64,000 nucleotides of DNA from Shigella phage SH7, in sequence record KX828711, one strand, 5' to 3'. Positions 6,893 to 35,784 of this stretch are shown one piece after another (position 1 is the first letter of the stretch; every line of letters begins with the position of its first letter). A program made the translations under genes and the position numbers. The notes below the pieces were generated by a model, which saw only the letters and a program-made list of their open reading frames with translations, had not been told where the DNA came from and searched no databases.

Positions 6893-7363
6893 TTAATCAT
6901 GTTTCCACACCCCATCGGTATTTGACCAAAGTCGCTGATTATCTGATCCTCGCCACAACTTTTTGGTCGGAAGATTTTTCTCATATTTCCCATCAATAAT
7001 AACATCAACATATTTAAGCATTTCTAGTTGTTTAATATCTTCAAACTTATATCCTGTCCACAACCAAATGCTTTTATTGGGATAAAGATTTTTTACTGTT
7101 TGAACAATGCAATGAACAACATCTCGGTTATCAGGATAGAGAGGGTCTCCTCCAGTTATAGTTAATCCTTCTATATAATCATTATTCAAACATTCAATTA
7201 ATTGTTCCAGTGTTTCACCAGTGAATGGAACGCCATTTCTAGCATTCCACGTTGATTTATTATAACACCCTTCGCATTTATGCAAACAACCTGTAACGAA
7301 AAGAACGACCCTGCATCCAGGGCCATTCACAAAATCGCAAGGATAAAATCTATCATAATTCAT
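6893..7363 (-). CDS. nrdG: anaerobic ribonucleotide reductase activating protein (radical SAM)
   Basis: 156 aa; CxxxCxxC radical-SAM cluster in GCLHKCEGCYN. Confidence 0.9.
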   Translation of the reverse strand: MNYDRFYPCDFVNGPGCRVVLFVTGCLHKCEGCYNKSTWNARNGVPFTGETLEQLIECLNNDYIEGLTITGGDPLYPDNRDVVHCIVQTVKNLYPNKSIWLWTGYKFEDIKQLEMLKYVDVIIDGKYEKNLPTKKLWRGSDNQRLWSNTDGVWKHD

Positions 7364-9177
7364 TGGTGTTTAACCCTATGCATGATTTCTTTATTTTTGC
7401 CGAGATTAAATCCGCGTTCGTTCGGATTTCCCAAATAACCACATGTTCTTCTTATTGTATTCATCTTTTTAGGATCAGTTTCTCCACAAATAGAACAAAC
7501 AAATCCGTTTTCAGTAGGAGTCATCTCATGGGTACTTCCACATGTAAAACATTTATCTACTGGCATATTAACACCAAAATAATCTAAATGTTGTGCAGCA
7601 TAATCCCATACAGCCTCAAGACCTTTTAAGTTATTTTTCATATCAGGAAGTTCAACATAAGAAATGTGACCACCTGTCGCAATGAAATGATATGGCGCTT
7701 CACGAGAAATCTTTTCAAACGGAGTAATATTTTCTTCTACTGAAACGTGGAAACTATTAGTGTACCATCCTTTATCGGTAACATCTTTTACACTTCCATA
7801 TTTTTCGGTATCAAGTTTACAGAAGCGATAGCACAGGTTTTCAGCAGGAGTAGAATACAAACTAAAAGCAAAACCAGTTCTTTCAGTCCACTGCTTAAGA
7901 CGAGCATTCATTTTAGTTAAAATTTCCTGTCCAATATCACGACCGACAAGAATATTCAATTCGTGAATACCAATGTATCCTAAGGACACTGAACTTCTAC
8001 CGTTTTTAAATAACTCAATTATATCATCATCGGGTTTAAGACGAACCCCGAATGCACCTTCTTGGTAAAGAATAGGAGCAACAGTAGCTTTAACTCCTTT
8101 TAAGGAACTAATTCTACACATCAAAGCTTCAAAACACAAATCCATTCGCTCATTGAATAATTCAGTAAATTTCTGTTCATTGAACTGTGTTCCAATATAA
8201 GAATCTAACGCAATGCGAGGAAGATTCAGTGTTACAACGCCAAGATTATTACGTCCATCAAGAATTTCATTACCAGTCGAATCTTTCCATACGCTCAAGA
8301 AACTACGACAACCCATTGGAGAAACAGGAATAGATGAGCCGGTGATAGCTTTATTGTTCTTAGCTGAAATAATATCAGGATACATTCTTTTGCTTGCGCA
8401 CTCTAGAGCAAGCTGCTTAATATCATAGTTCGGATCATCTTTATAAAGATTAACACCCTCTTCAACGAACATAACAAGCTTAGGGAAAATAGGAGTTATC
8501 CCATCGCGACCCAGGCCTTTAATACGATTTTTCAGAATTGCTTTCTGAATCATTCGTTCAGTCCAGTCAGTTCCCGTACCAAATGTAATTGTTACAAAAG
8601 GAGTTTGTCCGTTTGAACTAAAGAGAGTATTTACTTCATATTCATAAGCTTGGAATGCATCGTATACGTCTTTTTCTGTTTTAGATTGAGCATAATTCAA
8701 CGCATCGGCGATTTGCCATTTTTCTGCATCCTCAATGTGTTTTGCATAGGTGCGTTTAACATAAGGAGAAAGTACTTTATCTACATTCGCAAAAGTCGTT
8801 CCGCCGTATTGGTGAGAAGCAACCTGTGCAGTAATTTGTGCCATAATTGCAGTAGCAACGCCAATTGATTTAGGAGTTTCAATCTGTGCATTACCAAGCT
8901 TAAATCCGTTTTCAAGCATTCCTTTTAAATCTACTAAACAGCAATTAGTAAATGGAAGAGCAGGGGAATAATCAATATCATGGAAATGGATAATTCCGCT
9001 TTCATGCGCTTTCATAATAAAAGACGGGACCATATTTTTGGCAATGTGTTTAGACACAATACCAGCCATAAGGTCCCGTTGAGTTGGAAAAACACGAGAA
9101 TCTTTATTAGCATTCTCGTTTAAAAGGTCTTTATTAGTTTTATGAATTAATCCTTCAATTTCTTTTTCAATTGTCAT
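7360..9177 (-). CDS. nrdD: anaerobic ribonucleoside-triphosphate reductase
   Basis: 605 aa uninterrupted ORF; C-terminal zinc ribbon CFTCG..CSICG and glycyl-radical motif RRTCGYLG. Confidence 0.95.
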   Translation of the reverse strand: MTIEKEIEGLIHKTNKDLLNENANKDSRVFPTQRDLMAGIVSKHIAKNMVPSFIMKAHESGIIHFHDIDYSPALPFTNCCLVDLKGMLENGFKLGNAQIETPKSIGVATAIMAQITAQVASHQYGGTTFANVDKVLSPYVKRTYAKHIEDAEKWQIADALNYAQSKTEKDVYDAFQAYEYEVNTLFSSNGQTPFVTITFGTGTDWTERMIQKAILKNRIKGLGRDGITPIFPKLVMFVEEGVNLYKDDPNYDIKQLALECASKRMYPDIISAKNNKAITGSSIPVSPMGCRSFLSVWKDSTGNEILDGRNNLGVVTLNLPRIALDSYIGTQFNEQKFTELFNERMDLCFEALMCRISSLKGVKATVAPILYQEGAFGVRLKPDDDIIELFKNGRSSVSLGYIGIHELNILVGRDIGQEILTKMNARLKQWTERTGFAFSLYSTPAENLCYRFCKLDTEKYGSVKDVTDKGWYTNSFHVSVEENITPFEKISREAPYHFIATGGHISYVELPDMKNNLKGLEAVWDYAAQHLDYFGVNMPVDKCFTCGSTHEMTPTENGFVCSICGETDPKKMNTIRRTCGYLGNPNERGFNLGKNKEIMHRVKHQ

Positions 9178-25984: not shown

Positions 25985-26446
25985 TCATTGAGTTTTAATT
26001 ACTGCTTTAGAAGCCTTTCCTGGTAAACGACGACTGTTGATAATTGCCATCCTACATTGAAGTGACGGGTCTTTGAACTTCTCGTTAGGTTTACAAACTG
26101 TAAATCCAAGCCAAAGATTTCCATCTGTGATTTCTAAACGTCCAGGACGATATTCAACCCCATCAATAAAATCCTCGTCAATGTCAGGACGCGGAGGCAT
26201 TCTCAGGAATTCATTAACTTCTAAAACATGGTCTTTTATTTTATGGAATAATTCAAAAACGTATGTCTCATCAATCTCCCGTTGAATTGCACGATCAAGA
26301 AGATGTTGAGAATATTTTAGATGAAACGATGAGACCCCTGCTGCTTTTGATGCCTCACGAATCTCATTGTTAATTTGACGAAACTCCGACTCAAAGTGAC
26401 GACGAAGCTTATTTCGACGGATAAAAACTTCAGTGTTGATAGTCAT
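25985..26446 (-). CDS. regB: RegB site-specific endoribonuclease
   Basis: 153 aa; size and position match T4 RegB; sequence agrees with recollection. Confidence 0.8.
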   Translation of the reverse strand: MTINTEVFIRRNKLRRHFESEFRQINNEIREASKAAGVSSFHLKYSQHLLDRAIQREIDETYVFELFHKIKDHVLEVNEFLRMPPRPDIDEDFIDGVEYRPGRLEITDGNLWLGFTVCKPNEKFKDPSLQCRMAIINSRRLPGKASKAVIKTQ

Positions 26447-26473
26447 GTTATTCTCCTCTTAACTGATAGAAAA

Positions 26474-26503
26474 ATTATACCACAGTCAAGAGGAAAAGTA
26501 AAC
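26474..26503 (-). promoter_or_regulatory. early-type promoter (GTTTAC..TATAAT)
   Basis: Reverse complement GTTTACttttcctcttgactgtggTATAAT upstream of regB. Confidence 0.55.
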
Positions 26504-26505
26504 AG

Positions 26506-26784
26506 TTATTCTTTAAATCTAATCAATTTATTCATAGACTTTGAAACTTCGGCACGAACCTCATGTAGATTTTTGAGCTGTTCAAGACGCTGCGTATAGT
26601 AAGCAATTTCATCTTCTTCGAGACAGTCCTGCGAATCTTCTTTAAGATAACGTGCATAGTCCTGGAAAGCGTTACGGATTACTTCCTGGAAGTCATCAAG
26701 ACTTTGAATTTTCTTAGGAGCAGCAGATACACGACGAGGGGCAGTATAATACTCATAACCAAACCCTGCGCTTAATTGAGCCAT
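26506..26784 (-). CDS. hypothetical protein
   Basis: 92 aa from the Met whose ATG overlaps the upstream stop (TAATG). Confidence 0.5.
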
Positions 26785-27050
26785 TAGTATTTTTCCTCTG
26801 GTTGGAACACTGCACGACAAGCCCACATACTGGCTTCTTTGAGTTTCGTTTTAGCAATAGTTAACTGATCGAGGCTTTCAGCATAATTCTTCGCGAATTC
26901 ACAGTCTTCACAATTATCTAGTGCTTCCCAGAATTCATCGTATAAAGCGTCAAAGATAAGTCCTAAACGAACTTCAGCGTCTTTGATAGCATTCACTTTA
27001 CCGATTTTCTCTTCAGTATGTGGCTTATAACCCTTAATGTCTTCAATCAT
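26784..27050 (-). CDS. small acidic helical protein; possible Vs.4/Acb2-position protein
   Basis: 88 aa from the Met with GAGGAAG RBS; second gene upstream of regB, where T4 vs.4 lies; assignment by synteny only. Confidence 0.4.
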
Positions 27051-27264
27051 ATTTAACTTCCTCACCAGTACATAAATCATATTCAACTAAACGAATAGGT
27101 TCATGAATGCCATATCCCTGAACAGAAATTTCTGTCGTAGGATAAATTCCACTAATATCACCCATATTCCACGCTTCATTAAATTGCTGTTCGCCTGAAT
27201 TACTAAACCATTCTGCGAAAGCATTTAGCACATCTTTAGAACCTTCAATAATTATCTTTGCCAT
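27043..27264 (-). CDS. hypothetical small protein
   Basis: 73-aa ORF; start overlaps the upstream stop. Confidence 0.5.
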   Translation of the reverse strand: MAKIIIEGSKDVLNAFAEWFSNSGEQQFNEAWNMGDISGIYPTTEISVQGYGIHEPIRLVEYDLCTGEEVKYD

Positions 27265-27626
27265 TACAGACTCTCAGTAAAGGTACGAGCGATAACGTCG
27301 CGCTGCTGTTCCGGAGTCAGAGAGTTAAAGCGAACTGCATAACCGGATACACGGATGGTCAGCTGCGGATATTTTTCCGGATGCTTAACTGCATCTTCCA
27401 GAGTTTCACGACGCAGAACGTTAACGTTCAGGTGTTGACCACCTTCAATTTTAACTGTAGGTTGTGTTTCAATTTCAATTTCACGGGCGTGCAAACCATA
27501 GAAAATTTCTGGGTCTACAAAAGAGTCCTCTTTAAAGGTTTTAGAGACAATAATTCGCGCTTGAATACCATCTTCAAAATAAATAGTACCTTTATGCGTG
27601 CCTTCAAGAATTTGATATGCTTTCAT
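27264..27626 (-). CDS. autonomous glycyl-radical cofactor (GrcA/YfiD-like spare-part protein)
   Basis: 120 aa; C-terminal glycyl-radical fingerprint [17 protein letters not shown]. Confidence 0.8.
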
Positions 27627-27633
27627 ATAAACC

Positions 27634-27963
27634 TCAATTAGAAAATAAATTTATCCAAGATTGTTCTTTAATTAAAAATGGCTCAGAATCATATGCCATT
27701 AAACTTTGCGTAATTAATCCTTTAAAAGGTCCATCAATAAATTCCATGGTAAAATATGGAATTTTATTCATTAGCCGTGCATTAGGAGCCGTGCACAAAA
27801 CTCTGCATCCTTTGAATACGCCTTTTTGTAATTTGTATTGCTTAGGATAAAATTCACTTAAAATGTTATTTTTTGCCAAAATTTCAAAATGATTCACCAA
27901 TTTATTTTTAATAGTTTTTGGTGAAAAATAAAGATATTCAAAAAGTTGCGCATCTGTCATCAT
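27634..27963 (-). CDS. hypothetical protein
   Basis: Start at internal Met pair with ATGA overlap to the upstream stop. Confidence 0.5.
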
Positions 27964-28499
27964 TGCATTCCGATTACGAAAAACTGTGGACGAGTAATAC
28001 CACCAATACAACATTTAATATTACAGCAGCAGTGTACAGTGTCAATATGGACGCTATAAATCTTATCCATATCAGGAGATTTGACAGGCTCATCAATTAT
28101 ATACAAAATTCGCGAAAGCGATAAACCTCTGAACTTGCTTCCTTTATTACCAATAAAACTGCGCACAGAATCAGTAAATAAACGAAAACGTATATCATCA
28201 TTAGAATAACGCGAAAATTCCTTTTTAATGTTATTTGCAGAAATTTTAGCGTAAGCTGAAGTATTAGAAAGAACAATAACTGTTCCGCCATCATACAGCC
28301 AATTAGCAGCAAAGTTAGTCACAGCAATTGATTTACCGGATTGACGTCCACCATCTAGTCGAAGTGTGCAATACTGTTTAAGTAATTCTTCAAATGGCGG
28401 AATATATTCGTTTTTACAAATTTCTTCTACTCTAGCATCAGAATGGTGTGTAAAAGCATTCATCAGGGATAGATAAGGACCAGTTAAAAATGTTCTCAT
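27960..28499 (-). CDS. small P-loop NTPase with Cys-rich C-terminus
   Basis: 179 aa; Walker A GGRQSGKS, Walker B ILYIIDEP, C-terminal HCCCNIKCC. Confidence 0.55.
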   Translation of the reverse strand: MRTFLTGPYLSLMNAFTHHSDARVEEICKNEYIPPFEELLKQYCTLRLDGGRQSGKSIAVTNFAANWLYDGGTVIVLSNTSAYAKISANNIKKEFSRYSNDDIRFRLFTDSVRSFIGNKGSKFRGLSLSRILYIIDEPVKSPDMDKIYSVHIDTVHCCCNIKCCIGGITRPQFFVIGMQ

Positions 28500-28639
28500 T
28501 TCTTCTCTCTAAGTTTGGGCCATTCCGTGGCGCATGAATTGTCCATTTCTGTATTTACCCATTACCGCGCTTGGGCTCGACCTTATTACAGGTTGGCGGG
28601 AATCCCTCATAGAATCATGAGGTCCAGGTTGTTCCCATA

Positions 28640-29113
28640 TTATTTGAACGATTTAACGTACTGAATAGAACCTTTACTATTCACAAAGGCAATTTTACCA
28701 TTTTTGTTATACATAGTAGCAGTACGTTGATAGCCATAAGTTTGTTTACCAGATTGATAACCAACTAATGCGAAATTATCTTCACCCATTTTATTCTGTT
28801 TAGCGCGAATGCGTTCATGACCATGTGCCATAAGAACCTTAGCATCACCGGTTGCAATGGATCGACGAGTTTTTTCATCTTCAACTGTATTAACAAAGTC
28901 GTCAAATGAATCAAATTTAGCATGAGATTTATTATACAGTTTTCCATCTACTGCATAATTATATCCCTGTACATCCATCTCAACTTCTGTACCATCATCC
29001 AGTACAGCAGTGATTTTCTGTCCTTTTTTAAATTTCAAAAGATCAGTAAAAGATTCAGCAATAATTTGAGAATTAATAGCTGCTTCAGTAATAAATTCTT
29101 GATAGGTTTTCAT
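28640..29113 (-). CDS. internal head protein (capsid-targeting-sequence protein), IP locus
   Basis: 157 aa; N-terminal MKTYQEFITEA matches the T4 IP capsid-targeting sequence with an LxE protease site. Confidence 0.7.
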   Translation of the reverse strand: MKTYQEFITEAAINSQIIAESFTDLLKFKKGQKITAVLDDGTEVEMDVQGYNYAVDGKLYNKSHAKFDSFDDFVNTVEDEKTRRSIATGDAKVLMAHGHERIRAKQNKMGEDNFALVGYQSGKQTYGYQRTATMYNKNGKIAFVNSKGSIQYVKSFK

Positions 29114-29129
29114 GTGTTTCCTTTAATTT

Positions 29130-29447
29130 TTATTCTTTAGGGAAGTTTTTAGAATATGCATCATAAAGCTTATTTCCAATACGGCGGAAAACTCTAGCCG
29201 CAAAACGATTTTCTGGGTTTTTAATCATGATTTGCATCATATAAGTACCCGCGTCAGAAAGAGCTTCTTCATAGTACCCGTTAATTTCTTTAAGAGTCCT
29301 ACGTTTACCACCAGGACCATCAACAGTGATTTTCCATTTACCTGTAGAAGTGCGACTTGGCGGCTCAACTTGTTCAATCCAGATATAACCGCCTTCTACA
29401 CGTTGTCCTGCAGCAGATTCTGCAATAAATTCTTGATAGGTTTTCAT
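29130..29447 (-). CDS. internal head protein (capsid-targeting-sequence protein), IP locus
   Basis: 105 aa; N-terminal MKTYQEFIAES capsid-targeting sequence; between the IP gene and lysozyme e. Confidence 0.7.
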   Translation of the reverse strand: MKTYQEFIAESAAGQRVEGGYIWIEQVEPPSRTSTGKWKITVDGPGGKRRTLKEINGYYEEALSDAGTYMMQIMIKNPENRFAARVFRRIGNKLYDAYSKNFPKE

Positions 29448-35605: not shown

Positions 35606-35680
35606 TGGCGGACGTGATAGGATTCGAACCTATAACCAATCGCTTAACAGGCGATCGCTCTGCCATTGAGCTACACATCC
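35606..35680 (-). tRNA. tRNA-Asn (anticodon GUU)
   Basis: Cloverleaf, anticodon loop CUGUUAA, T-loop TTCGAAT, discriminator G, CCA encoded. Confidence 0.65.
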
Positions 35681-35684
35681 AAAT

Positions 35685-35771
35685 TGGTGGGGAGTGATGG
35701 AGTCGAACCACCCGAGTCGCAATGACAATGGATTTACAGTCCACACCGCTACCTCTACGGGATAACTCCCC
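35685..35771 (-). tRNA. tRNA-Tyr (anticodon GUA), long variable arm
   Basis: 87 nt; perfect 7-bp acceptor, anticodon loop CUGUAAA, extra arm, discriminator A, CCA. Confidence 0.6.
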
Positions 35772-35784
35772 TTAATTCTTAATT

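Follow-up and report, generated by a model that had tools for sequence, protein, structure and literature searches.

A GrcA-like glycyl radical protein with a host-identical radical domain in a T4-like Shigella phage

The grcA gene and its product

The window, the 64,000-nt stretch of Shigella phage SH7 (KX828711) that was analysed, derives from a Tequatrovirus (T4-like); over 3.2 kb, its identity to Escherichia phages A6-6 and vB_EcoM_G50 is ~97-98%. On its minus strand, grcA (27264..27626) forms a 120-aa ORF, from ATG to TAA, that is the ortholog of T4 vs.6 (Y06I); the RefSeq entries of G50 and of T4 (NC_000866) both give it the name 'autonomous glycyl radical cofactor GrcA'. The original prediction, from which the strand was absent, had placed here a 120-aa GrcA/YfiD-like protein with the sequence RVSGYAVRF, and the ORF, the Pfam search and the structure of E. 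coli GrcA (YfiD, PDB 6OWR) all agree with this. The C-terminal part of the protein matches the Pfam family Gly_radical (PF01228; E 2.2e-18, 67 bits against a cutoff of 22), the match covering aa 60-101 and profile positions 65-106 only, without the catalytic barrel. The best NCBIfam model is the GrcA equivalog TIGR04365 (154.6 bits, E 1.4e-45). This score lies below the equivalog cutoff of 170, because the N-terminus of the phage protein is divergent and 7 aa shorter, yet GrcA is by far the top-scoring family. Among solved structures, the top match is likewise E. coli GrcA (6OWR, E 4.6e-42), and the C-terminus of PflB comes second.

Glycyl radical proteins carry a signature of the PROSITE type, [STIV]-x-R-[IVT]-[CSA]-G-[YF]-x-[GACV]. 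A six-frame motif scan of the 64 kb retrieved two glycyl radical loops. One is RVSGY at 27339..27353(-) in grcA, and the other is RTCGY at 7435..7449(-), within the RTCGYLG loop of the ribonucleotide reductase NrdD. The former belongs to TIRVSGYAV (aa 90-98), which fits the signature, and its alignment to 6OWR and to PflB (PDB 1H16) equates Gly95, encoded by GGT at 27342..27344(-), with the radical glycines Gly102 of GrcA and Gly734 of PflB.

E. coli GrcA is likewise a small stand-alone glycyl radical domain protein. Its alignment with the phage protein, proposed as a check alongside the original prediction, showed that the C-terminal 63 aa are identical. The N-terminal part, in contrast, is 7 aa shorter in the phage and alignable only from aa 22, and the AT-rich DNA encoding it differs from E. 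coli grcA in ~55% of nucleotides. The two genes also differ in context, the phage copy presumably being expressed from a phage gene cluster and the E. coli gene from its own regulatory region. The C-terminal domain of PflB (1H16, residues 697-759) has the same radical loop and is identical to phage GrcA at 49 of 63 positions (78%). The phage protein lacks the ~700-aa catalytic barrel of PflB with Cys418/Cys419, and therefore cannot be an enzyme on its own. Its size and architecture are those of a stand-alone protein of ~120-130 aa that comprises a short N-terminal region and a glycyl radical domain only. For practical purposes it is a GrcA, and the sequence comparisons indicate that it would work like GrcA/YfiD.

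A sensitive blastn search retrieved grcA from 1,514 records of T4-like, T5-like and other phages, 917 of which cover at least 80% of the gene, and many of these records already label it GrcA. Several phage records use the label 'pyruvate formate-lyase', which is a misnomer: a pyruvate formate-lyase (PFL) has ~760 aa, a ten-stranded barrel and the catalytic pair Cys418/Cys419, none of which phage GrcA possesses. Only PflB residues 697-759 are matched, and the 89 bits obtained with the TIGR01255 model fall short of its cutoff of 994. Both halves of grcA are under purifying selection, with pN far below pS in the 3' half (0.004 vs 0.066) as well as in the 5' half (0.046 vs 0.30).

The T4 protein Vs.6/Y06I (NP_049730, named GrcA in UniProt) also has 120 aa, of which 118 are identical to those of the window protein; the two substitutions are T54P and R73H. 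Its gene occupies the equivalent locus: it is flanked by vs.7 and vs.5, follows ipII/vs.8 and precedes regB, the T4 gene order being vs.8-vs.7-vs.6-vs.5-vs.4-vs.3-regB. According to PMC8683613, Knappe and co-workers showed that E. coli YfiD and T4 Y06I are ~14-kDa spare-part proteins on which PFL activase puts a glycyl radical, after which they form complexes with oxygen-cleaved PFL and restore its activity (Wagner et al. 2001, BBRC 285:456). The same paper presents these two as the sole validated spare-part proteins, and the repair of oxygen-cleaved PFL by Y06I is also covered in a 2026 review (PMC13450708). Radicalisation by PflA is thus a property reported for the ortholog, and the window protein, with a radical domain identical to that of E. 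coli GrcA, is expected by analogy with Y06I to restore oxygen-cleaved PflB. Phage GrcA is accordingly already known, the T4 gene having been characterised experimentally in 2001. As first written, the finding rediscovers this gene and leaves existing knowledge unchanged, although it correctly illustrates that a lytic phage can carry a spare part for mending a fermentative enzyme of its host together with its own anaerobic ribonucleotide reductase (RNR).

This reductase, of class III, is encoded by nrdD at 7360..9177(-) (605 aa; Pfam NRDD E 1.7e-171, Gly_radical E 1.2e-25), and its radical-SAM activase by nrdG at 6893..7363(-) (156 aa; Fer4_12 E 1.4e-48, Radical_SAM E 6.4e-07). Pfam assignments therefore bear out the earlier claim that the phage encodes an anaerobic RNR, its activase and a separate radical-domain module. 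The distance of ~18 kb given for the module also stands, the gap between nrdD and grcA being 18,087 bp, as does the different glycyl radical context of NrdD. In this phage, nrdD is uninterrupted as a single 605-aa ORF. T4 nrdD (sunY) is split by a group I intron, and the window phage appears to be intron-less at that site.

Chimeric structure of grcA and host tracking across phages

The gene consists of two parts of different character. The 5' part (27449..27626(-), aa 1-59) is of a type common to other T4-like phages and has a GC content of ~34%, close to the 35% of the whole window. The start of this part resembles T5-like copies at the sequence level. The 3' part contains a patch (27274..27448(-), aa 60-118) that spans the whole glycyl radical domain; its 175 nt are those of E. 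coli grcA nt 200-374, with a GC content of ~49%. In blastn searches of 5,426 complete E. coli genomes, nt 179-363 of the phage gene alone were matched, at 98.9% identity and in every genome, while the 5' half had no DNA match in any of them. Outside the patch, megablast of the remaining 64 kb against the same genomes found no chromosomal match.

A codon alignment with E. coli grcA places 99 differences among the 180 aligned nucleotides of the 5' part, a saturated level, and two among the 180 of the 3' part, both of which fall within the final three codons (Fisher p = 4e-35). The 5' part differs from the ortholog in a Klebsiella Jiaodavirus at 49 of 180 nucleotides. The 5' boundary of the patch is sharp and falls at the E-G-G codons. 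In the region that the patch covers, E. coli grcA is 92% identical to that of Citrobacter amalonaticus (pS 0.30), 88% to that of K. pneumoniae (pS 0.41) and 82% to that of Salmonella (pS 0.59). Because the patch is far closer to E. coli than the grcA genes of these other genera are, it falls inside the genus Escherichia and is host-derived. The DNA of T4 vs.6 is chimeric in the same way; a single nonsynonymous change (R73H) separates its patch from E. coli, compared with none for the patch of the window. The locus is hence a base-exact, dated case of host-to-phage DNA flow into T-even phages, of modest wider value.

The Jiaodavirus ortholog, from Klebsiella phage vB_VIPKPNUMC01 (L085), has a phage-type 5' half that shares 73% identity with that of the window and departs from both hosts by ~55%. 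The 3' half of this ortholog (L085:481-663; GC 56%) is 96.0-96.4% identical to K. pneumoniae grcA (L172), 92% to K. aerogenes grcA and 88% to E. coli grcA. The 3' regions of the E. coli and K. pneumoniae genes differ at 21 sites. The window phage has the E. coli base at all 21; in the Klebsiella phage most of the sites show the Klebsiella base, and these form an uninterrupted run over roughly the first 120 nt. The Klebsiella phage case requires that the radical-domain region was replaced on a host template independently at least once more.

Copies of the Tequatrovirus and Mosigvirus types show a pS of 0.30 in the 5' half and 0.066 in the 3' half, and the 3' halves of the E. coli phages differ from E. 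coli grcA with a pS of 0.032; these estimates are based on ~40 synonymous sites in each half. Since synonymous divergence in the 3' half is far below that in the 5' half, the patch postdates the divergence of the two types. In a sample of 11 copies from E. coli phages, one from a Klebsiella phage and two records of K. pneumoniae, the pattern suggests that the radical domain was replaced repeatedly with the host gene as template. A specific form of this reading is plausible, albeit slightly short of probable: the N-terminal half would be inherited vertically, and the 3' half would be overwritten again and again by homologous recombination with grcA of the current host, namely E. coli for Tequatrovirus and Mosigvirus and K. 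pneumoniae for Jiaodavirus. Alternatively, a single host capture may have been followed by spread through phage-phage recombination. If repeated overwriting is true, it would be an instance of an auxiliary metabolic gene being 'refreshed' on a host template by T4-like phages, which are strictly lytic and degrade host DNA, and would keep the spare part exactly matched to host PflB and PflA. In the searchable literature, which largely excludes subscription papers and hence provides weak evidence on this point, no earlier description of a grcA chimera or of host gene conversion was found. We regard the host-tracking chimera as a modestly interesting evolutionary footnote.

Host tracking is not universal, because the copies from T5-like phages, Krischvirus, Slopekvirus, Pseudotevenvirus, Enterobacter phages and Citrobacter have no close match (72-86%; 77-86% in one comparison of the Enterobacter, Citrobacter, Slopekvirus, Krischvirus and T5-like copies) to any sampled host, in a set of host grcA genes that lacks the specific hosts C. 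freundii and E. cloacae. The GrcA-like genes of T5-like phages (Tequintavirus), Krischvirus, Slopekvirus and other phages share the architecture of the window gene, with a phage-type N-terminus starting MKAYQ, and differ from it in their 3' halves, which are 72-85% identical to any sampled host grcA and lower in GC. On sequence grounds, they appear to have been acquired long ago and to have ameliorated since, with no recent patch of host DNA. In T5-like phages (Tequintavirus Bf23, L089; IMG/VR contigs L133-L159), the gene adjoins tRNA genes. Their copies have the N-terminus MKAYQ as in the T4-like version and 3' halves only ~72-76% identical to any host grcA, which hints at an old acquisition or phage-to-phage transfer. 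One contig (L120, IMGVR_UViG_2706794630_000006) was considered as a third host-tracking case and rejected: its N-terminus is of the host type (MITGIQITKA...) and it is 91% identical to Yersinia grcA. It probably represents host DNA on a prophage or a misclassified contig, not a phage GrcA.

Proposed role of phage GrcA and its alternatives

Phage GrcA of the T4 Vs.6/Y06I type very probably repairs oxygen-cleaved host PflB, with a putative indirect metabolic link to nrdD and nrdG. The protein would be expressed from the vs.8-to-regB cluster after host gene expression has been shut off, a timing taken from T4. The host radical-SAM activase PflA would then abstract a hydrogen from Gly95 to generate the glycyl radical, as the literature describes in vitro for T4 Y06I. 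When host PflB is cut by O2 at Gly734, the phage protein, once activated, would dock on the truncated core in place of the lost radical domain, and the conversion of pyruvate to acetyl-CoA and formate would be restored, again in line with published in vitro work on Y06I. An infected cell would be unable to renew its own GrcA and PflB, and the phage copy could keep up the fermentative ATP supply during oxygen fluctuations. The 175-nt copy of E. coli grcA joined to the phage N-terminal part would make the phage protein fit host PflB and PflA exactly. The original prediction regarded the module as an adaptation to the microaerobic gut, which is a reasonable inference.

Formate is reportedly the hydrogen donor (reductant) of the E. 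coli-type class III RNR (Mulliez et al. 1995). T4 NrdD is placed with E. coli NrdD in subtype NrdD1. Repair of PFL could therefore maintain the supply of the reductant used by the E. coli/T4-type enzyme, consistent with established biochemistry. The most economical explanation of the link between grcA and nrdD/nrdG would be that it is metabolic, PFL supplying the reductant of NrdD, and not structural.

A structural link would mean that phage GrcA is a spare radical domain for phage or host NrdD, activated by NrdG, and does not serve PFL. Oxygen cleaves NrdD too, at its glycyl radical site, and nrdD and nrdG are present in the same phage; spare parts for other glycyl radical enzymes are also a matter of speculation in the glycyl radical enzyme literature (PMC8683613). 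Nevertheless, BLASTP of phage GrcA against its own NrdD gave nothing significant (E = 2.6) and did not align the radical loops, which are unlike one another (RVSGYAV in GrcA, RTCGYLG in NrdD). The C-terminal domain of NrdD furthermore contains a Zn-binding site that GrcA lacks, and the 2026 review (PMC13450708) describes spare parts as known for formate-lyases only. Since similarity to NrdD is not significant, whereas 49 of 63 residues match PflB and 63 of 63 match E. coli GrcA, a role as NrdD spare part appears unlikely from the sequences, and the reading as a whole, with NrdG as activase, is highly improbable. The same identities, together with those to T4 Vs.6/Y06I, agree with the original assignment of the protein to the PFL spare-part type, as distinct from the NrdD radical domain.

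The exact mimicry of the host domain would also suit a decoy or regulator that titrates PflA or binds PflB and thereby diverts carbon flux or the use of SAM and flavodoxin. Such a protein could employ its phage-specific N-terminal part, and in E. coli the N-terminus influences radical installation by PFL-AE (PMC13450708). In published biochemistry, however, the near-identical T4 protein restores PFL activity and does not inhibit it (PMC8683613), so that we consider a decoy improbable. A different view would treat the host-identical 3' half as a recent, neutral capture of host DNA without a selected function in the phage. It draws on the 175 host-identical nucleotides with their host-like GC content of 49% inside a genome of 35% GC, but is hard to reconcile with a patch that preserves the reading frame and takes the place of precisely the homologous stretch in a phage gene that was already there. 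Hundreds of phage genomes from several genera have an intact ORF, pN/pS is far below 1 in both halves, and the domain has also been kept in orthologs that have no recent patch, including those of T5-like phages, RB49 and Slopekvirus; a neutral hitch-hiker is thus very unlikely. Repair of host PflB remains the preferred explanation.

Gene neighbourhood and other features of the window

A promoter and terminator scan of 26400..29300 yielded 12 sites, against 10.4 expected from shuffled sequence, with no excess directly upstream of grcA. Expression as part of a tightly packed cluster fits the arrangement of the genes, as the grcA stop and the first codon of the following ORF overlap. This ORF, of 73 aa (27043..27264(-)), occupies the position of vs.5, and the overlap of its ATG with the grcA stop (TAATG) suggests translational coupling. 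The sole two differences from E. coli at the 3' end of grcA, at gene nt 354 and 357, are common to most sampled phages and mark the 3' edge of the patch. They create the sequence GAGAG ~8 nt upstream of the ATG of the downstream ORF (junction at 27264..27280(-)), which may be a Shine-Dalgarno candidate for that gene.

The 300-nt flanks of grcA (~26860..27260 and 27630..28030) are not homologous among otherwise close phages. The downstream flank, in the vs.5 region, differs from that of T4 at 179 of 300 positions, and the upstream flank differs from those of two other phages (L092 and L095) at ~180 of 300. The gene therefore lies between hypervariable gene cassettes, at the vs.5 and vs.7 positions.

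The second gene downstream of grcA, a 100-aa ORF (26784..27086(-)) located where T4 has vs.4, contains the Acb2/Tad1 hairpin domain (PF24729, E 1.1e-19); T4 vs.4 is the known anti-CBASS cyclic-nucleotide sponge Acb2. Elsewhere in the window, part of the tRNA region (35620..35777) matches, at 84-85% identity, a tRNA-Tyr/Thr/Asn cluster found on E. coli plasmids of ~97-110 kb. These matches occur at 259 places in 255 genomes, none of them chromosomal, which suggests that tRNA cassettes are common to T4-like phages and plasmid-like prophages.
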